Shown: positions 8,820 to 44,919 of the stretch, piece by piece
Numbering within the stretch: the first letter of the stretch is position 1
Layout of the letters: each line of letters starts with the position of its first letter
Sequence record: NC_073056.1
Length of the DNA stretch: 46,017 nt
Source of the DNA: Escherichia phage rolling
Reading direction: 5' to 3' (one strand)
Notes under the pieces: model-generated
What the model was told of the DNA's origin: nothing
Databases searched by the model: none
The model's input: only the letters and a program-made list of their open reading frames with translations
Translations under genes and position numbers: made by a program

Positions 8820-9599
8820 TTAACGGCGGCGACGTTTACGTGGTGCTTCGTCTTCGTCGTCTTCGTCCTCATCTTCGTCATCGCGGGACTTACGACGTTT
8901 ACGCGGCTTATCGTCTTCATCGTCGTCATCTTCATCACGGCGGCGCTTAGACTTGCGCGGTTTTTCATCTTCATCATCGTCGTCACGACGTTTTGACTTT
9001 TTGGATTTACGCGGTGCTTCGTCTTCGTCATCATCCAGGTCGTCGTCAGAGCAATATGCACCGCCGCCGCCACCGAAGGAATCCCCATCATCACGGAAGC
9101 GCATACCCAGCAGACCACAGCCTAAGCCTTTGCCGTTGGTATTGTTCCAGGCCCAAATATCTAAGGAAACGTTGCAATAGCAACCGGAATAGATTTCTTT
9201 CCCTTCGATTTCGTCGCCGTCGATGGTCAGACCCTGCTCCGTCTGCTTCTCGCCTTCGGAAGTCTGGATGATCGGCTGTTTGAATGATTTAGCGTTGATA
9301 TACAGCTTACCTTCAAACTCTTCCGTTACTTCTTCACGCTCATCACCATCTCGAACGGCACATTCTTTCGAATCCTGCGCGTAGTGGCGGTCCATCCACT
9401 TATCGGCGTTCTTCTCAGACTTCAGTTTTTCGGTGAGCACTGCGCGTGCCGCCGCTTCCACTTTGTCCACCTGCGGATCTTCTTTATCAAGAATAATCAC
9501 CGCACGATATGCCGGTTTTTGTCCATCCTGTTTAGGGGTATCACGCTCCCAAATTTTCAGGAAGCATACACGTACATTTTTCAGGTTGACTTTAGCCAT
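8820..9599 (-). CDS. SSB-like protein, DUF2815 family, with unusual alternating acidic/basic C-terminal tail
   Basis: N-terminus MAKVNLKNVRVCF...GQKPAYRAVIIL resembles DUF2815 phage SSB; start at internal ATG (M32) with GAGGA RBS; last ~76 aa are D/E blocks alternating with PRKxKxRR blocks. Confidence 0.7.
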   Translation of the reverse strand: MAKVNLKNVRVCFLKIWERDTPKQDGQKPAYRAVIILDKEDPQVDKVEAAARAVLTEKLKSEKNADKWMDRHYAQDSKECAVRDGDEREEVTEEFEGKLYINAKSFKQPIIQTSEGEKQTEQGLTIDGDEIEGKEIYSGCYCNVSLDIWAWNNTNGKGLGCGLLGMRFRDDGDSFGGGGGAYCSDDDLDDDEDEAPRKSKKSKRRDDDDEDEKPRKSKRRRDEDDDDEDDKPRKRRKSRDDEDEDEDDEDEAPRKRRRR

Positions 9600-11839: not shown

Positions 11840-12358
11840 TTAATCTTCTAATTCGAAATACGTTTCTACGATTTCTTTTAAATCTTTGTGGAAGTCTTCG
11901 ACGTCGTCATCTTCCAGCTTGGCGACGGATTTAATTTCGAACGCTTCCAGCAGATCATCAAATTCGTCGTTTGCGTCGTCGTCATCTCCGCCCGCAATAA
12001 TAGCGGCATACTGTTTGATTTCGTCGCGCATTTCTTTAAGCGGATCGGCATCTTTCTTGCCTTTGCCTTTCGCCGGTGCTTTCTTAGATTTCGCCGGGGC
12101 TTCTTCCTCGTCCGCGTCGTCGTCTTCTTCTACGGCTTCTTTCTTAGCCTTGCCCTTTGCGGGCGCTTTTTTGGTCTTTGCCGGGGCTTCGTCTTCAGCA
12201 TCGTCATCTTCGGCTACTTCTTCTTTCGCCTTGCCCTTTGCCGGGGCTTTCTTCGCTTCCTGTTTACCAACGGCAGCGCCAGCAGTTTCATAATGCTTAG
12301 CGATGGTTTCCAGTGCTACAACGCCGCGAGTGATCAGGTTTACGATTTGCTCAAACAT
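11840..12358 (-). CDS. Charged low-complexity protein with three KKAPAKGKxKK / acidic repeats; first leftward early gene
   Basis: ORF track; ATG with GGAG RBS; repeats EEVAEDDDAEDEAPAKTKKAPAKGKAKK x3. Confidence 0.7.
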   Translation of the reverse strand: MFEQIVNLITRGVVALETIAKHYETAGAAVGKQEAKKAPAKGKAKEEVAEDDDAEDEAPAKTKKAPAKGKAKKEAVEEDDDADEEEAPAKSKKAPAKGKGKKDADPLKEMRDEIKQYAAIIAGGDDDDANDEFDDLLEAFEIKSVAKLEDDDVEDFHKDLKEIVETYFELED

Positions 12359-12968: not shown

Positions 12969-15230
12969 ATGAGAGATTATTTAATTGAGTTCGGCACCGT
13001 CGGCGGTAAATACGGCAAACGTGTTAAAAACCATTCTATGACTGAAGCCGAGTTTATGGAATACGTCGCTGATACCGTTGAATTATCCAGCGTAACCATT
13101 ACCGGCGACGAGACTAAGAAAGAATACGACGAGGTGAAAGGCAAGGCGGAAGGCATTGTCGCCACCACTAAAGGCCGGGGACGTCGTGCTACGGAAGTGG
13201 GTGTCCGTTCCGTACTGTTCTATGACCTGGACCGCACTGACAACCGTACCCTCGGTCGCGTTAAGCGTGCCTTTCGCAAATCCGGCTTATCCCACGTCTA
13301 CTACTCCACTACAGGCGACCGCCACCCGCTGAAGGGCGGCACACGTTGCGCCCGTTTCCTGGTGCTCACTGATAAACCGGTTGATGTTTCCGATTTAGGC
13401 CGTGCGCAGTTCGCACTATTGAAACACCTGGGGCTGGAAGACGTGCCGTTTGATGATTGCACAAAAAACGTTAACAACCTGCAATTCCTCCCCCATTCCG
13501 GATCTACCGTGTCGTGTCATCCTGGCACGCCAGCCCGTGTCCGTCGTCTGCTTCGCCTGGCTGACAAGCTGGGAGTGGAGAAAGAGGAAGTACGCCGCGA
13601 ACTGACCCAGGGCGACGATGGCGTGGCGGACGGGATTCTGGATTGGTGCTTCCAGGCTGGCTTTGAACCACTGTCATCCGGTCGCGGTTATGAAGTGCCG
13701 TGCCCGAACGAGCACCTGCATAGCGGCGGCGGGTCGACGGCTATCATGGTTAAGGATGGCGAGATCCGTTTCAAGTGTATGCACACCGGAAACGAGTGCT
13801 GTTCCGAACTGAACAGACACCAGCACCTGGCGCTACGTCTTATAGGGATCCCGGACCACCTGAACGTCGAACCGCACAACATGTCACGTAAGCAAATCGC
13901 CGCCATTCTCCCTGGACTGGACGACGAGGAAGTCGAATCGTGCTATGAACATATTGTTGATGCAGTTGGCGACGGCGAAGAATACGGCGTGTGCACCGAT
14001 GCGGATCTGGATAACGAGCCGGTCGCACTCTTCAGTAAGCACGACCCGATCATAGAAGGCCTGGTAAACTTCAAATCGACCTGGTACATGGCTGGCGAGT
14101 CGAACATCGGTAAATCGTTCTACGTGCTGGGGCAAATGGGCGCGGTTGCCGCGGGGATTCCGTTCGGTGGCGCGAAGGTAGTCCAGTCTCATTGCTTCTA
14201 TTTCGACGCGGAAGGTGGTGAAGCCTCCAACCAGCGTAAAGAAGCATTGCAGATTAAATACGAGCACGACCTGGACAAGCTGCACATTATCGATCTGCAA
14301 TCACGCGGCTGGGATATCACCAGCAAATCCGGCTTGCGTGAAGTTATCAGCTTCATCAACCGCACCGCTAACGGCGAGCCGGTTGGCCTGGTGGCGTTCG
14401 ACTCACTCAACCAGACTGTTGCGCTGCGGTCCGCCGATGCAAAACCGTTCGACGAGAATAACGCCAGCGATATGGGTGAAGTGGTCAAAGCGCTGAAGGC
14501 CATTGCGGAAAATACAGGCGGCAGTGCGGGCGTCATCCACCACCCAGCGAAGGGTGCAAACGGCAGCAGATCTCCCCGTGGGTCCGGCGCGCTTCATGGT
14601 GCTGTTGATTCTGCGTTCTTCCTGGAACAGCCGGATGACAACCAGCCAGGCCAACTCAACCTGTATCACGAAAAATCCCGTAACGGGATTAAGCAAGCGC
14701 CGCGTGGCTTCGTCCTGCTCAAATGCAAGGTGAAGGTGGATCTCCGTAAGTCCGAGGCGTTCGAAGCCCACCAGTCCACCAGCACCGGTCCGGACTTCGG
14801 CGATGTGGTTGCCGGTTGGGACGTCAAGCCAATTGCATCCACGCCACGCGACGAGACTCTCTACCTCGTACCGGTCGCCCTGGCACCGTTCGCTATCGAA
14901 CAGGCGAAGGCGGCTGGCAAGGCAGCAGTTAAGGAAGAGAACACCGCCGGTCCGCGCAACGAAAAAGAGAAAGTGCTTTATGCGGCGCTGGAAAAACTGA
15001 TGGAAGATAACCCGGACCATACCGGATTCAGTAAATCGGCAATTGTCCGCCAGGCAGGGCTGGCAAAAGGTGGCACTTCGACGAAGGCAATCGACGATAT
15101 GGTGGAGCGCGGAGTGATAGGTTTTTACACCGATCCGCACACCGGGGCCATCTATGGGTCGTCTAATTTGGTCATAAAAACGAATATACCCATCACGCTT
15201 TCGGCGACCGATGACGACCTGAAAGATTAA
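12969..15230 (+). CDS. Primase-helicase replication initiator (primase-polymerase N-domain, RecA-like ATPase, C-terminal winged-helix-like region)
   Basis: Walker A GESNIGKS, RecA-like AFDSLNQ / VIHHPAKG segments, C-terminal HTH-like tail. Confidence 0.85.
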   Translation: MRDYLIEFGTVGGKYGKRVKNHSMTEAEFMEYVADTVELSSVTITGDETKKEYDEVKGKAEGIVATTKGRGRRATEVGVRSVLFYDLDRTDNRTLGRVKRAFRKSGLSHVYYSTTGDRHPLKGGTRCARFLVLTDKPVDVSDLGRAQFALLKHLGLEDVPFDDCTKNVNNLQFLPHSGSTVSCHPGTPARVRRLLRLADKLGVEKEEVRRELTQGDDGVADGILDWCFQAGFEPLSSGRGYEVPCPNEHLHSGGGSTAIMVKDGEIRFKCMHTGNECCSELNRHQHLALRLIGIPDHLNVEPHNMSRKQIAAILPGLDDEEVESCYEHIVDAVGDGEEYGVCTDADLDNEPVALFSKHDPIIEGLVNFKSTWYMAGESNIGKSFYVLGQMGAVAAGIPFGGAKVVQSHCFYFDAEGGEASNQRKEALQIKYEHDLDKLHIIDLQSRGWDITSKSGLREVISFINRTANGEPVGLVAFDSLNQTVALRSADAKPFDENNASDMGEVVKALKAIAENTGGSAGVIHHPAKGANGSRSPRGSGALHGAVDSAFFLEQPDDNQPGQLNLYHEKSRNGIKQAPRGFVLLKCKVKVDLRKSEAFEAHQSTSTGPDFGDVVAGWDVKPIASTPRDETLYLVPVALAPFAIEQAKAAGKAAVKEENTAGPRNEKEKVLYAALEKLMEDNPDHTGFSKSAIVRQAGLAKGGTSTKAIDDMVERGVIGFYTDPHTGAIYGSSNLVIKTNIPITLSATDDDLKD

Positions 15231-15339: not shown

Positions 15340-15371
15340 CGTGTAGTGTAAATATAGTGAATAGTTATGCA

Positions 15372-15547
15372 GTTTTATTGCATAAAGTAAGCGGGACAAA
15401 AAGCGGGACAAACATGGGGCGGGACAAAGCGGGACAGCACCCCCTGTCCCGCCCGGATGGCGCGGCTTGCGGAGGAGCGGGACAGGCGGGACAAACCTCA
15501 GTCTTTCAGACTAGACGGGGTCAGTTGGCCCCCCTCGTCTGAGACTG
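15372..15547 (+). repeat. Iteron array 1: GCGGGACA x7 with TGCATAA motifs and conserved ~50-bp imperfect hairpin
   Basis: GCGGGACA at 15391, 15403, 15419, 15429, 15477, 15487 plus inverted TGTCCCGC at 15445; hairpin 15499-15547; AT-rich stretch just upstream. Confidence 0.85.
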
Positions 15548-15701
15548 CATAAAATCCGGGATTGCATAACGCACGGCAGCATGATGTGAATTGCGGTCGT
15601 CGATGAACTAGGCAACCAATGCGTGTTGAATAATGGAGAGTGAAAAATGCAGTTTGCAGTTGCAGCAGATAGCGATCAACTTTTTCATACGCATGATTAA
15701 T

Positions 15702-23841: not shown

Positions 23842-24928
23842 TCAACATATGGCGGATCGTATGATTCGCCGTCACATCTTCACCCAGCGCCTGAGCAATG
23901 ATCAGGCGCTGCGGGTGTTGGCTATGTGGGAGAAGTTCCGACCCACGTTACTTGGCAAGCTGACCGAGTTACTTGATGGCAAAAAGTCCATGAATAACAA
24001 GGCACTGACCACACTGTTAACGCAAATAGACAAAACCGTCAAAACGGAACTGCGCACCGAGTTTAAGGCGCTGGCTGAAAGCCTTCAGGAGTTTGCCGAC
24101 ACCGAGGCTGATTATCTTGCCGATACATTAACGGCAGCGATCCAGCCTGCGGTAGCCGTACCGGCTGTTGAGGTTGTTGGCGTAGTGACTGGCGCGCAGA
24201 TTGCAGCCACGGCTATGAAAAACCCGTTCCAGGGAAACACCATGATGCAATGGCCTGATTCACTTTCTGAGTGGATCAGGACGCAGATCGGGAATCAGGT
24301 GCGCGCTGGATTCATCCAGGGCAAGCCGACTATGGAAATTATCGCGGACGTAAAGCGCGCTCTCGGCGGTCGTAGCGCGCAAGCTATCTCAAGTGTTGTT
24401 AAGTCCGCAGTAAACCACTATGCGGCGACCGCCCGCGAGTTATTGGTGAAAGCTAATGACGATATTCTCGAAGGTCGCCAATGGTTGGCTACATTGGATA
24501 CGCACACATCACCAATGTGCCAACTACGCGATCGCCTGTTTTATCCTGTTGACGTCACTCCCGACACCAAAGGAAAGCGCGGCGGGAAAGTGGTGGCTGG
24601 ATCACAATATGGCGCTGGTCCGGGCAAGCTACATTATTGCTGCCGTTCGACGGAGACGTGGAAAGTTAAAGGCATGGAAGATTGGCCCAGTGGTAAGCGT
24701 CCGGCACTGAAGGCTGACGCGGGTCGATTGCTGAGTGAGCAGGTCGACGCTCAGACTGATTTCTTCTCATGGGTGCAGCGCCAGCCGCGCCATATTCTGG
24801 AGGAATTATATGGGGTGCAGCGCGCAGACCAGATTATGCGCGGCGTGAAAGTGCCTAAGATGTTCACCGATACCGGCGAACTAATGACTATTGCACAGCT
24901 TAAAAACCGGGGGTTATGGCGTGATTAA
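23825..24928 (+). CDS. Head morphogenesis protein (Mu F / SPP1 gp7-like)
   Basis: Position after portal; conserved-looking HYAATARELL...WLATLDTHTSPMC segment. Confidence 0.75.
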   Translation: MARTINQHMADRMIRRHIFTQRLSNDQALRVLAMWEKFRPTLLGKLTELLDGKKSMNNKALTTLLTQIDKTVKTELRTEFKALAESLQEFADTEADYLADTLTAAIQPAVAVPAVEVVGVVTGAQIAATAMKNPFQGNTMMQWPDSLSEWIRTQIGNQVRAGFIQGKPTMEIIADVKRALGGRSAQAISSVVKSAVNHYAATARELLVKANDDILEGRQWLATLDTHTSPMCQLRDRLFYPVDVTPDTKGKRGGKVVAGSQYGAGPGKLHYCCRSTETWKVKGMEDWPSGKRPALKADAGRLLSEQVDAQTDFFSWVQRQPRHILEELYGVQRADQIMRGVKVPKMFTDTGELMTIAQLKNRGLWRD

Positions 24929-25229
24929 ATATGCGGCTATTGGACTGGTTATCGGTCTGGCGGTTGGATTCTGGCAGGGTGATTCCTACCGCACTGGCGT
25001 TGTGGCGAAAGCGGCGCAAGAAGCGCAAGCGAAAGCCCAACGGCAGCAAACTAAGGTTGTTGAGGGGTCGGTGAAAGCTGAGCAGGCCCGCGACGTGGAA
25101 TACCGGACTATCACGAAAGAGGTTGTAAAATATGTTACGCGTCCTAACCGTCCTGATTGTAGTTTTGATGCTGAGCGCGTGCGGATCAAGCAAAGCGCCA
25201 TCGACGCCGCTAACCGAGTCGGTCTATAG
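24921..25229 (+). CDS. i-spanin (Rz-like)
   Basis: N-terminal TM AAIGLVIGLAVGFW then Ala/Gln-rich coiled coil; start uncertain (in-frame GTG 24921 or track start 24891); contains overlapping o-spanin. Confidence 0.65.
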   Translation: MIKYAAIGLVIGLAVGFWQGDSYRTGVVAKAAQEAQAKAQRQQTKVVEGSVKAEQARDVEYRTITKEVVKYVTRPNRPDCSFDAERVRIKQSAIDAANRVGL

Positions 25230-25362
25230 ACCGCCTTGCACATTTGAGAATGCCTCGGCAGACCCAGACGAAGACTTGCTTGTTGATGTTAAAAATATGG
25301 AGTGCGGATCTAAGCTGCGGGCGCAAGTGCTGGAGTTGCAGAAAATAATTCTGGGGCCGTGA
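25132..25362 (+). CDS. o-spanin (Rz1-like lipoprotein), overlapping Rz in +1 frame
   Basis: Signal peptide with lipobox LSAC, Pro-rich mature part; ATG with AGAGG RBS. Confidence 0.75.
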   Translation: MLRVLTVLIVVLMLSACGSSKAPSTPLTESVYRPPCTFENASADPDEDLLVDVKNMECGSKLRAQVLELQKIILGP

Positions 25363-25379
25363 TGGCCCCCCTTTTGTTA
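25340..25379 (+). terminator. Terminator hairpin, left copy of a 40-bp direct repeat
   Basis: AGAAAATAATTCTGGGGCCGTGATGGCCCC + T-run; GGGGCC/GGCCCC stem, Rz1 stop codon in the loop. Confidence 0.7.
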
Positions 25380-25380
25380 A

Positions 25381-25893
25381 CTACAAACGCATCGGCATGA
25401 TAACTAAAAAGGAACCTCCTTTGAACAGCACGCGTGTTGCCTTGTCTACTCCCTGAAATTCCAGTTTTAAGCCCTCAAACTTATGGTCGAACAATTTAGC
25501 AATTTTGCAGGCGTCGGACAGGTATGCCCCTTTAAACCCGATAGCCTCCACTTTATTGCTGACGAAAGACGTAACTCTTCTCCAGTCTGGAAATCGTCCG
25601 TCTACAATCTCGATGGGTATGGTAGCTATTAATACGTCTTTACTATCGAAGAACGCGGCGGAGGTGCCGTCTATGTTGCAGTATTCGAATTTAGTAGGTA
25701 AGCGGCCTTTAATTGATACTATTTTACTTTCACCTTCTGGAACAACCGCGGACCCGCAGAACAAACGGTGACCGTCGGTAGCCACGATGAATCCTTTCTC
25801 GTCGAAAAATACACCATTTAGGAAGTATCGGACGTCATTAGTTGCGGCGCACATCGTAGCGGCTTTAATGTCGGCATAGTTAACTTTAATCAT
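25381..25893 (-). CDS. Truncated beta-sliding-clamp (DnaN) homologue (about 170 aa)
   Basis: DVRYFLNGVFF...VATDGHRLF, IVDGRFPDWRRV and C-terminal LVIMPMRL match DnaN domain II/III hallmarks as recalled from E. coli DnaN; start at internal ATG (M27) with GAGGA RBS. Confidence 0.75.
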   Translation of the reverse strand: MIKVNYADIKAATMCAATNDVRYFLNGVFFDEKGFIVATDGHRLFCGSAVVPEGESKIVSIKGRLPTKFEYCNIDGTSAAFFDSKDVLIATIPIEIVDGRFPDWRRVTSFVSNKVEAIGFKGAYLSDACKIAKLFDHKFEGLKLEFQGVDKATRVLFKGGSFLVIMPMRL

Positions 25894-25915
25894 TTTCATT
25901 TCCTCGTGGTTATGT

Positions 25916-25955
25916 AGAAAATAATTCTGGGGCCGTGATGGCCCCTTTTTTGTTA
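25916..25955 (+). terminator. Terminator hairpin, right copy of the 40-bp direct repeat
   Basis: 30/30 identical to 25340-25369 then T6; duplicates the last codons of Rz1 plus the hairpin. Confidence 0.7.
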
Positions 25956-26717
25956 GCGCGGAATACCGCAAATCTCGTTGAGTGTTTTCACGTCCAGCGC
26001 CACCGCCGTGGACTTCGTCTTGTTCTGATATGGAATGAACTGTTCAACTTCAGGCCACGCCTTGATCAGCTTCTTATCGGTATTGTGCATATCCAGCACG
26101 CCGGTAACAGTTAGCTTGAACGCGTCATACTTTGCGCGCAACTCGCGGCGGGCCTTGTCATTTCGGTCCAGGCGCTTGCAGAAATCATGATCGGCCGGGT
26201 AGTCTACGCGTCCGCGCGGGAGATATATCGGCAGCACTTTTCCGTCCTCATCCACTTCGCACACTGACGCGAGCATAATTTCCGCGTACCCCGGTACAAT
26301 ATCGCTAACGTCAGGCGCGAGCGTATTCATATATTTCTCTTCCCAGTATCCGCGATGCCGGCGGTAGCTGTATCCGTCACCGCTCATATACAGGGATCGG
26401 ATGTTACCGCCTGCGTTGATTTCGAAATTGTCGCAGTAAACGCACCCAATACCCTTCTGACGGTCTTTGTTATAGCTATACGTCGCCTTGTCGGTGTAAA
26501 CGCTGACGCCATACATCTGCGACTGGTTATTGCGGATTTCTTCGATATATGCGCGTAGCTCGGCGAACGTGCGAATGCCTTTTGGCATACAGTCCAGCGT
26601 AATTGCGTACGCCAGGTCGCGAGAGTCCATCATGATTGATTTGGCTTCAGTCGCGATTTCGTGGTCGCGCAGGATGTTAGCCAGAATCTGGTTTTTAATG
26701 TCTTTTGTCAGTCGCAT
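25953..26717 (-). CDS. Hypothetical protein (254 aa), moron gene antisense to the late operon
   Basis: Track ORF 25953..26762 from internal ATG (M16) with GAGGA RBS; no family recognised. Confidence 0.65.
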   Translation of the reverse strand: MRLTKDIKNQILANILRDHEIATEAKSIMMDSRDLAYAITLDCMPKGIRTFAELRAYIEEIRNNQSQMYGVSVYTDKATYSYNKDRQKGIGCVYCDNFEINAGGNIRSLYMSGDGYSYRRHRGYWEEKYMNTLAPDVSDIVPGYAEIMLASVCEVDEDGKVLPIYLPRGRVDYPADHDFCKRLDRNDKARRELRAKYDAFKLTVTGVLDMHNTDKKLIKAWPEVEQFIPYQNKTKSTAVALDVKTLNEICGIPR

Positions 26718-26739
26718 TTGTGTTTCCTCATTGTTGGTG

Positions 26740-26811
26740 TGCAACCAATATAGTGCAACCAATACCTGTATTGCAAGCGAATTTTGCGATTATTTTTATC
26801 GCTGATAATAT
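26740..26811. promoter_or_regulatory. Back-to-back divergent promoters (leftward for moron genes, rightward for scaffold/capsid)
   Basis: Leftward: TTGCAA (26771-26776) N18 TATATT (plus 26747-26752), with TGCAACCAAT at 26740-26749 and 26754-26763; rightward: TTGCGA (26784-26789) N16 TAATAT (26806-26811). Confidence 0.5.
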
Positions 26812-31586: not shown

Positions 31587-31616
31587 TTTGGTCGCTTAAA
31601 TAGCGAGTGTTAATAT

Positions 31617-31639
31617 GGGGCCTGCACGGCCCCTTTTTT
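31617..31639 (+). terminator. Intrinsic terminator after major tail gene
   Basis: GGGGCC-TGCAC-GGCCCC followed by T6. Confidence 0.7.
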
Positions 31640-31655
31640 ATTGGAGAATATTACA

Positions 31656-32018: not shown

Positions 32019-32332
32019 TTGAGGCGGCGCGACGCTTTTATGGCCCGCCGCCACCCTCCGAAGATTTAGCCGCTAGTTTATGGGGTGCGGCCCCCGAGGA
32101 TGTTTGTCCACCTGTTGCGCTATGGCCCGACAACGCGAAGATAGTCGCCGTATTCACAGATTGCTCTACGCAATGGCGCACCGGATTCGGTGGGGCATAC
32201 GGCATCGACTACGGCGTTCTGGAGTGGCTATTTAAGATGCACGGCATCGAAAACGAGCAACGTGCATTTAAAGATATAAAGCTAATGGAGCGAATCGCGC
32301 TTGATGAAATGGCGCAACAAAACCCCGCATAA
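31656..32332 (+). CDS. Tail assembly chaperone G-T fusion by -1 programmed frameshift (join 31656..32015, 32015..32332)
   Basis: Heptamer A AAA AAC at 32009-32015; the -1 frame is closed just upstream and open for ~105 codons downstream to TAA 32330-32332. Confidence 0.65.
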
Positions 32333-32336
32333 TGAA

Positions 32337-32661
32337 GCGGGACGGATCGGGACGTCCCGATTTGTCCCGTTTTGTCCCGCCCCCAGTAAAACTGCATACC
32401 TACCCACTTTCATTGCATAAACTCAAAGCGGGACAAGCGGGACGCCCCGATCCGTCCCGCCCATTAAATGTGCATACCTATTCAGATCTCGTGCATAAAA
32501 CAAACGGGACAAAAAGCGGGACAAACATGGGGCGGGACAAAGCGGGACAGCACCCCGTCCCCGTCAGTGCTGCCGCGGGTTTTAGCCGATCGGGACAGGC
32601 GGGACAAAGCCCAGTCTTTCAGACTAGACGGGGGTCAGTTGGCCCCCCTCGTCTGAGACTG
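32337..32661 (+). repeat. Iteron array 2: GCGGGACA-type repeats (>=14 copies) with TGCATAA motifs and the same conserved hairpin
   Basis: Copies at 32337, 32347, 32428, 32437, 32516, 32532, 32542, 32599 and inverted copies; palindrome CGGGACGTCCCG 32348-32359; ~52-bp and ~65-bp blocks near-identical to array 1; hairpin 32612-32661. Confidence 0.85.
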
Positions 32662-32730
32662 AATAAGGTTTGTTTGAAATTCGCTGATACAATGTCAATC
32701 GGCAACTGCATAAAAAAAGGGGACTGCATA

Positions 32731-35376
32731 ATGGCAGATCAAGCAGCAGGCATCACGCTAAAGGCGGATGTTGCACAAATCAGAACGGCGAATACGGTGC
32801 TGGACTCATTCGCGCAGAAGTCCGAGAACACCGAAAACAAGGTTAAGAAATTAAACGACACGCTCGGCAACTCGAAAAAGGTGACGAGTGACGCCGCGGG
32901 CGGAATGGAGAAACTTGCGAACGAATCGCAGCGCGCCGCAGATGGCATGACGAAGCAGGAGCGACTTGCCAACCGCTTAGGCATGTCAACCAAAAACCTC
33001 GGCTTTGCCTCACGTAACGCCGCATTTCAGTTACAGGATATTGCGGTCACGCTTGAGATGGGTATGCCGGTGCACCGTGTCATGCTTCAGCAGCTACCGC
33101 AGTTAACTGGGGCATTCGGTGGCCTGGGTAACACGCTGCGTTATGTTGCTGGTTTTCTCGGTCCGGTAGGGATCGGTCTTGCTGCGGTAACGGCGACGTT
33201 AGGCGTAGGCGTGGCGATTACGTCCCGCGCCGAAAACCAGGTAGCGGCGCTGAATAAGACGCTGGCGCTATCAGGTAATATCTCTGGCCTCACCGCTAAC
33301 CAGATCCTGGTGCTGTCGGAGAACGCCGAACGCATGGGCGGGTCATTCAGCAAGACGCGTGACACAATTCAGGCACTGGCGGCAGCAGGTGTGAAAGCGG
33401 GTGCTGACTTCGGCGCACTGGCGAAAGTGGTGAACGACTTCGCGAAGGTGTCTAATCAGCCGATCGCGGACGTGGTGGAGTCCATCTCCAAATTGTCCAA
33501 CGACCCGGTGGGCGGCTTGCGCGCACTGGCGGACAAGTATCACGTCGTTACCGAGGCGCAGATCCAGCAGGTGCAATCCCTGGTGACGACGGGCCGCGAA
33601 ACCGAAGCGGTGGCGTTGGCTAACAAAACAGCCGCGGCGTCGTTCACCAGCATGACCAACGAGATCAAGTCCAACATGGGTACGCTTGAGCGGTCAATGA
33701 ACGTAGTCACATCGGCAGCCAAATCTATGTGGGATGCCATCCTGGATGTGGGCCGCGCGCAGTCCTCGAATGAGTCCGAGATGAAAGCGCGTGAATCCTT
33801 GCAGCGCATGACAACGGCCTACTATGCCGAGATGAAAGCGGTAAACGCTGCCGGTGGGGTAATGACCGAGGCGCAGAAAGCACGAATTAACATGCTTTAT
33901 AGCGAACTGGTCGCCCAGGAGAAAGTAGTAGCGTCACTCACCCTGCGCAACCGTGCTGAGCGTGACAACGCAAGCGCCGCGGACAAATCAGCGAAGGCGA
34001 ACGAGGAGGCCAACCGCACCGCCCGCGACCGCGCCGCGTTCGAGAAGGAATTTGCCACCAACGCGCAGAAGCGCGCCGACGAGATCGCCCGCCTCAATTT
34101 GCTGAATAAGCGCGGTGTGATTAACGAGAAAGAACTAGCCGAGGCGGTGAAGCAGGTCAACGAGCGCTACAAAGACCCCGCACCGAAGAAGGCGGCGGCT
34201 ATTCGCGTGGATGCTGGTGTCAAAATGCTGGAGGTCGCACGGAGCGAACTGGCGCAGCTTAAGGAGTCCGGCAAGCAGATCGAGGCCAATGCGACAACGC
34301 AGACCCGCACGCAGCGCGCACAGGCCGCGTTGAATAAGCTGGTGGCGGATAATGAGCAGATGGTCACAGCAAGCAAGGAGCGCACACTAACGGCAGCAGA
34401 AAAGCAGCAGATGGCGGAGTTCGAGGCGGTTAAAGCAGTACGCGAGCAGATCGTCGAAGAAGCCAAGTTGCTGGACGCGAAAGAGAAGCAGATCAAGGCA
34501 CACGCCCAGGTCGAGGCATTCATCAAGAACCAGAACGCTGAGCTAAGGGCCACCGCTGCGGGCTATGCGCTTTCCACTCGCGAAGCGGCTAACCTGCGCG
34601 AAGAATTACAGCTAATTGACCGCCTTCAGCGTGTCGGCGCTAACGATACTGATATTGACAACGCGGTGTCTAAGCTGCGCGAAGTGCAGGAAGCACAGAC
34701 CGGTGCTAACGCCTCGTTGTGGGATGGCTTCAGCCGCGGGCTTAAGGATAGCGTGGATGAAATGGGTAACGGCTACACGCAGATGACGTCACTCACAAAA
34801 TTCACGTTCGGCGCTATGCAGGACACGATGAACAAGTTTTTCGAGACGGGCAAGCTGAGCGCGAAGGATATGGTTAAGTCCATCCTGAGCGAATTAATCA
34901 AGCTGGCTACCTCGCAGGCGTTCAAATCCGTCGTTAGCGCTTTCGGCGGTGACGGCGGCAAAAACGGATTGTTCGGCGCTATCTTCTCCGGCCTCACTAA
35001 GAACGCAGACGGCGGAGCGTACGCAGGAGGCAACCTCGCGGCCTATTCGGGGCAAGTGGTAAGCCAGCCTACCTTTTTCAGCTATGGCGTCCAGGCGTTC
35101 GCGAAGGGCGCAGGATTGATGGGTGAGGCTGGACCCGAGGCAATCATGCCACTGAAGCGCGGGCCGGATGGGAAACTGGGCGTTGCCGCTGCCGGTGTTG
35201 GTGGGGGTGGGATGATTGTAACGACCAACGTGAACATGGGGACCGGTAAAACGGACACCAGTGTGAGCGGACCGGACCCACGCACCGCGCAGGCGTTCGG
35301 CAAGCAAATCACCGAGTCGGTCAAGGCCGAGATCGTGAAAGCGACGAAACCGGGTGGAGTACTTTACAAACGATGA
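32731..35376 (+). CDS. Tape measure protein
   Basis: 881 aa from internal ATG (M134 of track ORF 32332..35376; upstream part runs through the repeat array); coiled-coil Ala/Gln-rich centre, Gly-rich C-terminus. Confidence 0.85.
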   Translation: MADQAAGITLKADVAQIRTANTVLDSFAQKSENTENKVKKLNDTLGNSKKVTSDAAGGMEKLANESQRAADGMTKQERLANRLGMSTKNLGFASRNAAFQLQDIAVTLEMGMPVHRVMLQQLPQLTGAFGGLGNTLRYVAGFLGPVGIGLAAVTATLGVGVAITSRAENQVAALNKTLALSGNISGLTANQILVLSENAERMGGSFSKTRDTIQALAAAGVKAGADFGALAKVVNDFAKVSNQPIADVVESISKLSNDPVGGLRALADKYHVVTEAQIQQVQSLVTTGRETEAVALANKTAAASFTSMTNEIKSNMGTLERSMNVVTSAAKSMWDAILDVGRAQSSNESEMKARESLQRMTTAYYAEMKAVNAAGGVMTEAQKARINMLYSELVAQEKVVASLTLRNRAERDNASAADKSAKANEEANRTARDRAAFEKEFATNAQKRADEIARLNLLNKRGVINEKELAEAVKQVNERYKDPAPKKAAAIRVDAGVKMLEVARSELAQLKESGKQIEANATTQTRTQRAQAALNKLVADNEQMVTASKERTLTAAEKQQMAEFEAVKAVREQIVEEAKLLDAKEKQIKAHAQVEAFIKNQNAELRATAAGYALSTREAANLREELQLIDRLQRVGANDTDIDNAVSKLREVQEAQTGANASLWDGFSRGLKDSVDEMGNGYTQMTSLTKFTFGAMQDTMNKFFETGKLSAKDMVKSILSELIKLATSQAFKSVVSAFGGDGGKNGLFGAIFSGLTKNADGGAYAGGNLAAYSGQVVSQPTFFSYGVQAFAKGAGLMGEAGPEAIMPLKRGPDGKLGVAAAGVGGGGMIVTTNVNMGTGKTDTSVSGPDPRTAQAFGKQITESVKAEIVKATKPGGVLYKR

Positions 35377-42894: not shown

Positions 42895-44919
42895 ATGGCA
42901 GCGGGTACACTATCCGTAACGAATAACAGCAAGGCGGTAGTCGGTGTCGGCACGACGTTCACCGCGTTTAAAGCTGGCGACTTCTTAACGTTGGTGGTGG
43001 GGCAAGTCCCTTACACTGTTGCTATCGCGTCCGTCGAAAGCGACACCGCGCTTACGCTGGTGCTGCCGTTCGACGGCCCCACGGCAACCGGCCTTGCCTG
43101 GGATGGCGTTGCGCGTGATACCATGTCCCTGGCGACGATGGGCGTAACAGTCCAGGCGCAGAAAGCATTTCGCTTGATGATTGCAGATGAAAACAACTGG
43201 CGTGCCATCTTCGGCGACGCTGAAGAAATCACAGTGACGTTACCAAACGGGCAGGTTATGCAGGGCATGTCATGGGGCTATCTGTCAAGTCTTCTAAAAG
43301 ACGTTGACCCGGTGGAGCTTCAGAATATTGCCAACCAGGCGGTGAGCGCGAAAAACCAGGCTGTAACCGCGAAAAACGATGCTGTGTCTGCCAAGAATGA
43401 TGCGCAGACTGCGAAGACTGCCGCAGAAACAGCGCGCACGCAAGCCCAGTCGGCTAAGACCGCCGCAGAGTCAGCACGTGACGACGCGCAGACGGCTAAG
43501 ACTGCCGCAGAAACAGCACGCACCCAGGCACAGACCGCGAAGACCGCCGCAGAAACCGCCAAGGGTGCGGCGGAAGACGCCCGCGATGAGGCGAAGCAAT
43601 ATGCAGAGCAAGCCGGAGCACCATATAAGCAGGTATTACAACCGCTACCAGACGTGTGGATTCCGTTTAACGATTCGCTGGATATGCTCGCAGGCTTCGC
43701 GCCCGGATACAAGACGGTTACGGTAGCCGACGACGAGGTTACTATGCCGAGCGACAAGGTGGTGTCGCTCAAGCGCGCATCAACGGCAACATATATTAAC
43801 AAGTCCGGCGAGTTTAAAATCGCAGAGATTGACGAGCCGAGATTCGAAAAATACGGCCTGCTCATTGAAGGCCAACGCACTAACCACATCATCAACGGGG
43901 GCGCTCCGGCTGGCTGGGGCCACAGCACATCGGTTGGCGTGGTTACGGGTACAGATGCTTTCGGTTTCTTGTATGGAAAGTTTGGTATCGGCCAGGGCGA
44001 CGTGGGCAGTACGACTGCGCTTAACCTGGCTTCCGTAACATCAGCAAACAGTCTGGATACTTCCGGCGTCGATAAGTATGTAACGGCGTCATGCCGCTTT
44101 CGGTCCGACAAGGATGTACGTCTTCGTGTGCGTTTTGCAGAAGGCGCGGATCAAGGCAGCATGGCTTTCTCTGGCGACGCGTACATTAAATTAAGCGATT
44201 TGTCCGTGTCTAAGACGGGTGTCGCGGCAGACCGCATTACCGTAGAAGTCGAGAAAGACGAAGCCACCGGATGGAATCGTGCGGTGGTAATGCTGCAAGC
44301 TACCACGGCGCTGGTGAACGCGCAGATCCAGATCTCGCCAGTGAGCAGTTATGCTGCCGGTGATTATATCGAACTGGCAACTCCGCAGGTTGAGTTAGGG
44401 ATCGGGGCGTCTTCATATATCATCTCCGGCACATCTCCAACCACACGCGCTAGCGATATGGTGACGGTACCGGCTAACCGCAACCTGTATAACCTGCCGT
44501 TTACGGTGCTTGTAGAAGTTCACAAGAACTGGTCTAAGGCGCCGAACGCAGCGCAGCGTGTATTCGACACCGGCGGTCATCAATCGGGTGCGGCTATTAT
44601 CCTGGGATTCGGGTCTGGCGCTATTGACGGGTATCCGTACTGCGACATCGGCGGTGCTAACAGACGTTTGAATGAAAACGCAGGGCTTAAGCATATGGTT
44701 ATGGGTATGCGTGTGAAAGAAAACCAGGACACTTGCGCGGTGAGTAACGGCATTCTTTCGACCGAATCGAAAACCACATGGACCTACCTGAAAGGGTCTG
44801 CGACGCTGCGAATCGGGGGTCAAACAACGACTGGAGACAGACACCTGTTCGGGCACGTCCGTAACTTCCGTATCTGGCATAATGCGCTGACCGACCTACA
44901 AATGGGGGAATTAGTGTGA
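42895..44919 (+). CDS. Tail fibre protein with internal Ala/Thr/Lys-rich tandem repeats
   Basis: Internal ATG (M10) with GAGGA RBS; repeats AKNDA.. / QTAKTAAETARTQ. Confidence 0.75.
   Translation: MAAGTLSVTNNSKAVVGVGTTFTAFKAGDFLTLVVGQVPYTVAIASVESDTALTLVLPFDGPTATGLAWDGVARDTMSLATMGVTVQAQKAFRLMIADENNWRAIFGDAEEITVTLPNGQVMQGMSWGYLSSLLKDVDPVELQNIANQAVSAKNQAVTAKNDAVSAKNDAQTAKTAAETARTQAQSAKTAAESARDDAQTAKTAAETARTQAQTAKTAAETAKGAAEDARDEAKQYAEQAGAPYKQVLQPLPDVWIPFNDSLDMLAGFAPGYKTVTVADDEVTMPSDKVVSLKRASTATYINKSGEFKIAEIDEPRFEKYGLLIEGQRTNHIINGGAPAGWGHSTSVGVVTGTDAFGFLYGKFGIGQGDVGSTTALNLASVTSANSLDTSGVDKYVTASCRFRSDKDVRLRVRFAEGADQGSMAFSGDAYIKLSDLSVSKTGVAADRITVEVEKDEATGWNRAVVMLQATTALVNAQIQISPVSSYAAGDYIELATPQVELGIGASSYIISGTSPTTRASDMVTVPANRNLYNLPFTVLVEVHKNWSKAPNAAQRVFDTGGHQSGAAIILGFGSGAIDGYPYCDIGGANRRLNENAGLKHMVMGMRVKENQDTCAVSNGILSTESKTTWTYLKGSATLRIGGQTTTGDRHLFGHVRNFRIWHNALTDLQMGELV

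Follow-up and report, generated by a model that had tools for sequence, protein, structure and literature searches.

In the genome of Escherichia phage rolling (NC_073056.1), all 46,017 nucleotides of which were analysed and are called the window below, a gene for a truncated protein resembling the bacterial beta sliding clamp is enclosed by two copies of a 43-nt direct repeat, each carrying a predicted intrinsic terminator. The repeat is a recombination scar of the ordinary sort that standard phage mosaicism leaves behind, here in a slot for accessory genes, and it calls for no new mechanism; the arrangement was probably produced when two units, which occur separately in related phages and which each consist of the terminator and one leftward gene, were joined in tandem by one homologous and one illegitimate crossover.

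The two copies of the repeat occupy positions 25337-25379 (left copy, T1) and 25913-25955 (right copy, T1'), with a start-to-start spacing of 576 nt, and a repeat search of the window found them identical at 40 of 43 positions, including a core in which 30 of 30 positions agree; this core, the 30-mer AGAAAATAATTCTGGGGCCGTGATGGCCCC, is present in the window at these two places only, the expectation from 100 dinucleotide-preserving shuffles being zero, and immediately outside the repeat the identity is at background level (4/10 on the left, 3/10 on the right). A reading of the window made earlier from the sequence alone (hereafter, the sequence-only reading) had described a 40-bp repeat with the same core, bracketing exactly one gene; both observations were borne out, the repeat being 3 nt longer on its left side. 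Each copy contains a hairpin with a 6-bp G+C stem, GGGGCC-GTGAT-GGCCCC (25353-25369 in T1 and 25929-25945 in T1'), followed by a T-run. Both T1 and T1' were predicted by a terminator scan on either strand, and scan and folding together assign to both of them the features of a bidirectional intrinsic terminator, namely a G+C stem-loop with a U-run on both strands; segments of 51-57 nt including the hairpin fold at -15 to -18 kcal/mol. On the plus strand the hairpins are followed by CCUUUUGUU or UUUUUUGUU, the tail of T1' being the textbook UUUUUUGUU, whereas on the minus strand the tail is AGAAUUAUUUUCU, an interrupted U-tract, and termination is probably weaker there than on the plus strand. 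A search of the whole window against Rfam at gathering thresholds returned 0 matches, so no known RNA family lies in or near the repeat, and the repeat search of the window found no inverted repeats at the ends of the cassette.

Intrinsic terminators are alike in their generic shape, and a third one, weakly similar to the repeat (60% identity), is found at 31601-31643; it could thus be argued that two independent terminators came to resemble each other by chance, or that the second copy is an artefact of assembly. The duplication, however, also includes 16 nt of coding sequence upstream of the hairpin, no such repeat is expected in the shuffled sequences, and four genomes that were sequenced independently show the same two copies; the shuffles and the recurrence in other genomes refute both explanations, whose probability is practically nil.

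The gene order on the plus strand is portal, head-morphogenesis, Rz and Rz1, all reading rightward into T1, on which the leftward genes converge from the other side. The Rz-type i-spanin gene (24918..25229, plus strand; PHROG 2536 "Rz-like spanin", 119.9 bits) and the Rz1-type o-spanin gene (25132..25362, plus strand; PHROG 5672/1267 "Rz-like spanin", with the lipobox LSAC) were both identified as open reading frames. The last eight codons of Rz1 fall within the left copy of the repeat, the very last ones and the TGA stop codon being part of the stem and the loop of the T1 hairpin, with the stop in the loop; the right copy repeats these eight codons, with the CAG codon changed to TAG (25915-25917), and continues through the hairpin and the T-run to the TTA that constitutes the stop codon of the next leftward gene. 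No plus-strand reading frame enters this right copy, so that the duplicated codons are, as had been noticed in the sequence-only reading, without a frame of their own. In the opposite direction, the order starting from a promoter-like site is the Nmad5 gene (nucleotide modification associated domain 5; 25953..26717, minus strand; Pfam PF18757, 190 bits), T1', a stretch of 13-19 nt with a Shine-Dalgarno sequence, the clamp-like gene and T1.

The clamp-like gene (25381..25893, minus strand) is the only gene between the repeats. Its TAG stop codon (25381-25383) is 1 nt away from the left copy, and at the other end no more than 20 nt separate the right copy from the Shine-Dalgarno sequence and the start; the leader (25900..25914, minus strand) comprises the Shine-Dalgarno motif GAGGAA, read on the minus strand, and the novel junction discussed below. 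The start codon is most likely the second ATG, at 25893, which yields a protein of 170 aa; an alternative in-frame ATG at 25899 would yield 172 aa, it is absent from the sister genomes, and the homologues are 170 aa long. The G+C content of the gene is 45.2%, as compared to 54.2% for the window, which places it among the lowest 0.8% of windows of the same size.

The label "DnaN-like", given to this gene in the sequence-only reading, holds at the level of the fold. A phmmer search against the PDB sequences matched residues 139-284 of the E. coli beta clamp (E=1e-8), while the Pfam family DNA_pol3_beta_2 (PF02767) scored 24.9 bits, under its 27-bit cutoff. The AlphaFold (AF2) model of the 170-aa protein, computed from an alignment of 43 homologues, has a pLDDT of 93.4 and a pTM of 0.89; in a Foldseek search against the PDB, bacterial beta clamps took all of the top 50 places, with E about 1e-8 and TMq 0.62-0.68 (0.65-0.68 for the leading ones), and the predicted structure superposes on a solved beta clamp, as expected for a member of the clamp-fold superfamily. 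The protein was rejected as an orthologue of DnaN, given its length (170 aa versus about 366), the restriction of the match to residues 139-284 and the Pfam score below cutoff; indeed, sequence and predicted fold correspond to domain II and part of domain III of bacterial DnaN, and a ring of two three-domain subunits cannot be built from the phage protein as it is from DnaN. It is instead a member of PHROG 3007, a phage-specific family in which 209 homologues of about 170-190 aa could be detected and which occurs in 265 phage records; the label of this PHROG, "RusA-like Holliday junction resolvase", appears to be a mislabel. Literature searches on the locus or on the clamp-like protein in Dhillonvirus returned nothing specific.

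The window is a member of Dhillonvirus, that is, a virulent E. coli siphophage of the HK578/SO-1-like group, and its closest matches are the E. coli phages 101114BS4, WF5505 and CHD5UKE2 (about 96% identity). The T1 element is present in single copy in about 155 Dhillonvirus records. The sequence-only reading had suggested, as a check, a search for a related genome lacking the cassette and carrying a single hairpin; such genomes turned out to be the rule, since in 143 of the 155 records spanning the Rz1-T1 junction the match to the window stops exactly at 25379, the end of the repeat, and the sequence goes on into Nmad5, the matched span being 2025 bp, that is 2601 minus 576. In these single-hairpin genomes (e.g. 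22664B1) the left flank of the hairpin matches that of the left copy of the window and the right flank that of the right copy. In the other 12 records, which represent 7 phages, the clamp-like gene directly follows T1.

The comparison defines an accessory slot between the o-spanin and the scaffold genes, transcribed leftward, the ends of which are T1 and a conserved leader with its promoter. The usual sole occupant is Nmad5, found in 144 of about 157 related records, and the configuration T1, Nmad5 is accordingly that of the majority (type A). In type B, represented by SO-1, TheodorHerzl, AV129, the IMG/VR sequence L011 and the metagenomes L054 and L055, T1 is followed by the clamp-like gene without Nmad5; in type C, represented by the window, 101114BS4, WF5505, CHD5UKE2 and the metagenome L053, the order is T1, clamp-like gene, T1', Nmad5. 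The phage EP23 has T1, Nmad5, a second hairpin (T2) with a gene remnant, and the clamp-like gene (type D), while in RuthEpting, CEC_Kaz, Zar3M, SM_W22 and others T1, Nmad5 and T2 are followed by a gene of 330 bp or 400-520 bp (type E); further variants are L020 and L021, the latter with Nmad5 excised precisely. Every cassette of the slot ends in a G+C hairpin, which is T1 or, in relatives, T2 (GGGGCTTTCGCCCC). The remnants of displaced genes retained by EP23 and L020, together with the excision in L021, indicate that illegitimate joins are frequent in this slot. The haplotypes A and B have a common flank that extends through "TTGTTA(GC)" after the hairpin and, at the other end, a common leader, "...TCCTCRTTGTTGG|TGTGCAACCAATA"; in particular, the B-types and EP23 have one identical join between leader and promoter, which is the same as that of Nmad5 in the A-types.

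The promoter-like site (26739..26776, minus strand) has the form TTGCAA-18-TATATT (26776..26747) and overlaps two tandem GTGCAACCAATA motifs; it is the sole promoter candidate for the unit of Nmad5 and the clamp-like gene in a minus-strand consensus scan, and the region is kept upstream of whichever gene fills the slot, in all configurations. Between Nmad5 and the clamp-like gene, where only 13-19 nt separate the right copy from the start, a simple sigma-70 consensus scan found no promoter-like site; a weak or non-canonical promoter inside the 3' end of Nmad5 could escape a scan of this type. Judging from consensus scans and folding, both leftward genes are probably transcribed from the one promoter upstream of Nmad5. 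T1' would then act on the minus strand, on which its U-tract is interrupted, as a leaky attenuator, and on the plus strand as a second barrier for rightward late transcripts; moreover, the repeats would render the cassette deletable through homologous recombination.

Morons of lambdoid phages, reportedly described by Juhala and co-workers in 2000 and by Hendrix and co-workers, are extra units of promoter, gene and terminator, found between genes that are adjacent in relatives. In the sequence-only reading the repeat-bounded cassette was taken as the signature of a moron insertion, and the likeness is in part justified: the clamp-like gene is present in some genomes and precisely absent from close relatives, its composition is atypical (the G+C values given above), and it has a factor-independent terminator at its flank and the opposite orientation within a late, structural region; indeed, the GenBank records of SO-1 (gp7), AV129 and CHD5UKE2 already read "possible moron gene product". 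Other features differ. The simple consensus scan found no promoter belonging to the clamp-like gene itself; as to the terminator, the case is equivocal, for one does follow the gene, but it is the resident one of Rz1 and Nmad5, present also in cassette-free genomes, duplicated and not cassette-borne; and the gene and Nmad5 are allelic alternatives in one slot, rather than the gene being a pure addition, and a homologue occupies a comparable position in another genus. Finally, the phage is virulent, so that expression from a prophage does not apply.

The formation of the tandem can be followed at its junction. All five C-type genomes (the window, 101114BS4, WF5505, CHD5UKE2 and L053) have an identical sequence here, "cctcgt|GGTTATG|TAGA", which points to a single event. 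Through 25907 the leader of the clamp-like gene is that of the B-types (closest to L054, "CATTTTCATTTCCTCGT"), and from about 25913-25915 the sequence is the Rz1 3' end of an A-type genome; between them lies the scar GGTTATG (25908-25914). Type C is therefore read, with good but not full confidence, as a B-type unit (Rz1 end, T1, clamp-like gene, leader) and an A-type unit (Rz1 end, T1, Nmad5, leader, promoter) joined in tandem: a homologous crossover would have occurred in the common left flank, and an illegitimate one would have fused the clamp-like leader to Rz1 codon 69-70. The 43-nt repeat would in this case be the portion of the common flank brought in twice, its right edge (TTGTTA) corresponding to the end of the homology between A and B and its left edge to the illegitimate junction. 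Since intact units of T1 with the clamp-like gene and of T1 with Nmad5 exist elsewhere, the repeat is interpreted as the common flank of the stacked units, and not as a target-site duplication. For the same reason, namely that the unit pre-exists in the B-types, a transposon with target-site duplication was rejected, the repeat moreover being 43 nt long, inverted repeats being absent and the sole gene inside being the clamp-like one, with no transposase.

The phylogenetic relationships were examined with simple neighbour-joining (NJ) trees of about 25 loci, those of the flanks being built on ungapped columns. Both flank trees place the C-types, together with the A-type 22664B1 and the E-type RuthEpting, in a single shallow clade and scatter the B-types; among the clamp-like genes, those of the C-types make up a clade of their own, the nearest B-type relative being L054, which is 94.8% identical to the C-types in the gene and about 91% in the flanks, and which matches them exactly in the leader up to "cctcgt" and in the 3' flank "TAACTACAAAC". 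Such a pattern would result from the transfer of a B-type cassette into an A/E-type backbone. The junction does not combine the sampled A and B sequences neatly, since it differs from their simplest join by 2 extra nt and 1-2 substitutions; among the sampled genomes, no B-type is more than 94.8% identical to the C-type gene and no A-type more than about 94% to the patch formed by T1' and the adjoining part of Nmad5, from which it follows that both donors are unsampled. The proteins encoded in Dhillonvirus include a gp2.5-like annealing protein and an exonuclease, and in the genome of a fully annotated relative no integrase or HUH transposase is annotated; this equipment is compatible with recombination via short homologies. 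Mosaic junctions generated by illegitimate and homologous recombination have been described, for example, in mycobacteriophage Giles (Morris et al. 2008, as cited in PMC9892861), and the present case does not differ from them in any essential way: there is one novel joint with hardly any or no homology and one crossover in a conserved flank, displaced-gene remnants are found at other joints of the slot, and divergence is patchy outward from the repeat copies, with the peculiarity that both parental haplotype classes and the product have been sampled.

The proposed direction of the event (B × A → C) has to be weighed against its inverse, which is closer to the sequence-only reading of an insertion or duplication at a terminator hairpin: a foreign cassette would have been inserted into an A-type genome at the hairpin, with duplication of about 43 bp of target by a staggered break or a template switch, and the B-types would have arisen later by loss of T1' and Nmad5, recombination having spread them further. 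In favour of this view, the empty site matches exactly, the G+C content of the gene is low (45.2% against 54.2%), the backbone clade of the C-types is otherwise of A/E-type, with Nmad5 nearest to that of the A-type 22664B1, and a 9-bp microhomology between the leaders of both genes could mediate the deletion from C to B. Against this order stands, first of all, the diversity of the B-types, which are dispersed across the genus with up to about 10% divergence in the gene, as compared to at most 4% within the C clade; since the ancestral type ought to be the older one, this counts against C preceding B. Furthermore, the leader-promoter join common to the B-types, EP23 and the Nmad5 of A-types is most simply seen as the native boundary of the slot, and the low G+C content is a family trait, found also in SO-1 and in Kagunavirus. 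In the latter genus, a homologue 43% identical lies leftward within a rightward head and lysis region, in a comparable position, next to spanins 36-41% identical and a head-morphogenesis gene 30% identical, which makes the clamp-like family an old resident of this neighbourhood rather than a newcomer. By deletion, B could in principle derive from C between the 9-bp "TTTCCTCRT" leaders, and A from C between the 43-nt repeats, but the reverse order, in which C originated by true insertion and B or A by later deletion, appears less parsimonious, and this insertion scenario is considered unlikely. Of the claim of insertion at the hairpin, then, the presence or absence of the cassette exactly at the terminator is retained, and the idea of a free cassette is not, the B-types already holding the unit of T1 and clamp-like gene.

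The association of each slot cassette with a G+C hairpin, T1 or T2, and the succession of promoterless cassettes behind one promoter, with a content that varies among relatives, superficially recall an integron array; attC-like sites have, moreover, been reported in virulent phages (PMC9892861). A dedicated hairpin-directed mechanism, integron attC-like or IS200/IS605-like, which would recognise T1 and add promoterless cassettes to it, is nevertheless very improbable. The breakpoints are heterogeneous, falling in Rz1 codons, in the Nmad5 3' end, in the 3' end of the 330-bp gene and in the T1 stem; the duplicated stretch contains flanking coding sequence; the hairpin, of 17 nt, is far below the size of attC and lacks an inverted pair of GTTRRRY cores; terminal inverted repeats are absent, and the annotation of the relative's full genome, as said above, includes neither an integrase nor an HUH transposase. 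An integron cassette with attC was rejected on these grounds: the slot has neither integrase nor attC architecture. A broader possibility is that hairpin and leader serve as portable short homologies for the gp2.5-like annealing protein and the exonuclease, thus constituting an integrase-free hotspot of cassette exchange; the cassettes would be the clamp-like, Nmad5, 330-bp and 400-520-bp genes, each with a hairpin (T1 or T2) after it and a near-identical leader before it. This possibility is regarded as a long shot.

The repeat had also been taken to indicate that the cassette was acquired recently, a conclusion that did not survive the comparison with the sister genomes. One and the same right copy, GTAGACGATAATTC-GGGGCCATTACAGCCCCC, is found in 101114BS4, WF5505, CHD5UKE2 and L053; it is about 79% identical to the left copy of the same genome, and its folding is not more stable than that of shuffled sequence (z = -0.2 to -0.8). 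In the phage collection, this variant was found only in C-types and was absent as the sole terminator from A-type genomes. The common scar and the decayed right copy in four other genomes imply that the event is not recent; the decay is what one would predict for a redundant terminator on which selection is relaxed or favours read-through.

In the window itself T1 and T1' are nearly identical, which is no sign of youth, since this identity is accompanied by a diverged recombination patch. Relative to the sister genomes, the window carries 0-2 differing nucleotides per 100 in the head-morphogenesis and scaffold flanks and in the first 300 nt (25400-25700) of the clamp-like gene, but 9 per 100 over the Rz1 3' end and T1, and 16, 12, 11, 7, 8, 8 and 5 per 100 in the successive intervals from 25900 to 26600; the differences lie in two patches, each starting at a copy of T1. 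The 195 nt of Nmad5 adjoining T1' are 94.4% identical to the A-types L012 and L025, as opposed to 87.2% to the sister C-types. The copies of the window are near-identical because a later patch covers the right copy and the adjacent, approximately 200 nt of Nmad5; the right copy may either have been re-imported from an A-type terminator, or the two copies may have been homogenised against each other. Both copies carry a T before the stem (ttcT-GGGG; variant ttcT-GGGGCCGTGATGGCCCC), which among the genomes examined is found elsewhere only in Zar3M and CEC_Kaz, an exact-word search of IMG/VR for the ttcT variant giving no match. The proposal that this T is unique to the window, and thus a proof of intragenomic gene conversion, was weakened, since the exact-word search showed that Zar3M and CEC_Kaz carry the variant; the shared T is explained equally by conversion or by import from one donor.

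The locus is a clean natural example of accessory-gene stacking, in which the parental classes, the recombinant, the scar, the decay of the terminator and its restoration can all be found in public genomes, and it has, as such, a value for teaching; for annotators, a terminator in two copies marks a deletable cassette, and the "RusA-like resolvase" label is seemingly wrong. If the exchange-hotspot possibility were true, virulent siphophages would possess an integrase-free counterpart of the integron, by which accessory genes, possibly with anti-defence roles, are reshuffled and stacked, and the truncated clamp and Nmad5 would represent two exchangeable responses to one host barrier. Beside the finding itself, the biological question raised by this slot concerns the role played by a partial beta clamp of 170 aa in roughly 260 siphophage genomes.

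The region around the gene for nucleotide modification associated domain 5 (Nmad5; 25953-26717, minus strand) contains a second cassette site, located immediately upstream of the Nmad5 leader at about position 26733 of the window, which corresponds to positions 2838, 2260, 2261 and 2260 in the relatives' loci L002, L003, L004 and L005, respectively. In many relatives this site holds an extra gene, of 330 bp or of 400-520 bp, whose edges are formed by a second hairpin (GGGGCTTTCGCCCC) and by a repeated leader (TCCTCRTTGTTGG); in the related phage EP23 the occupant is the clamp-like gene itself, and both in EP23 and in the locus L020 short remnants of displaced genes are retained. Nmad5 is entirely absent from another relative, the IMG/VR genome L021, where (L021 5020-5050) the hexamer TCTCAT, which holds the Nmad5 start codon, is joined to the terminator tail CGTCAG; this arrangement is consistent with a deletion between the GTCAG microhomologies found at both ends of the gene.

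Nmad5 and the scaffold gene are separated by a divergent promoter region (26739-26787) in which the motif GTGCAACCAATA occurs twice in tandem, and a 39-nt motif (TATAGTGCAACCAA...TTGCAAG..AATTTTGC) is common to this region and to a site at 1323-1361, with 77% identity, being probably a phage promoter or operator element that is used again. Two directly repeated copies of a stretch of roughly 200 nt lie 17.1 kb apart (15357-15552 and 32470-32666), 82% identical across 164 nt and 97% identical across a further 36 nt; each copy contains the motif GCGGGACA(A) 6-7 times and then a long hairpin (CAGTCTTTCAGACTAGACGGGGGTCAGTTGGCCCCCCTCGTCTGAGACTG), and resembles an array of iterons or operators with a terminator. 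The first copy is placed just after the end of a 753-aa ORF (12969-15230), while the second is close to the start of a 1014-aa ORF (32332-35376).

A third terminator (GGGGCCTGCACGGCCCCTTTTTT; 31601-31643) has the general design of T1, the left copy of the 43-nt terminator repeat that flanks the clamp-like gene; its identity to that repeat is 60%, and it is probably an independent terminator rather than a third copy. Imperfect direct repeats also form arrays at 8835-9035, 12021-12253 and 43348-43536 (periods 54-87 nt and 84 nt) and are, on composition, probably coding repeats; those on the minus strand would be acidic or lysine-rich, and those at 43.3-43.5 kb alanine/lysine-rich and tail-fibre-like.

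As to the clamp-like protein (25381-25893, minus strand), its family, PHROG 3007, is named "RusA-like Holliday junction resolvase" in PHROGs, a label also found in the RefSeq records of the related phages SO-1 and EP23 and of many Salmonella phages. Both in sequence and in predicted fold, the protein is beta-clamp-like and not RusA-like; the RusA-like label of the family is therefore probably a misannotation that has been propagated.
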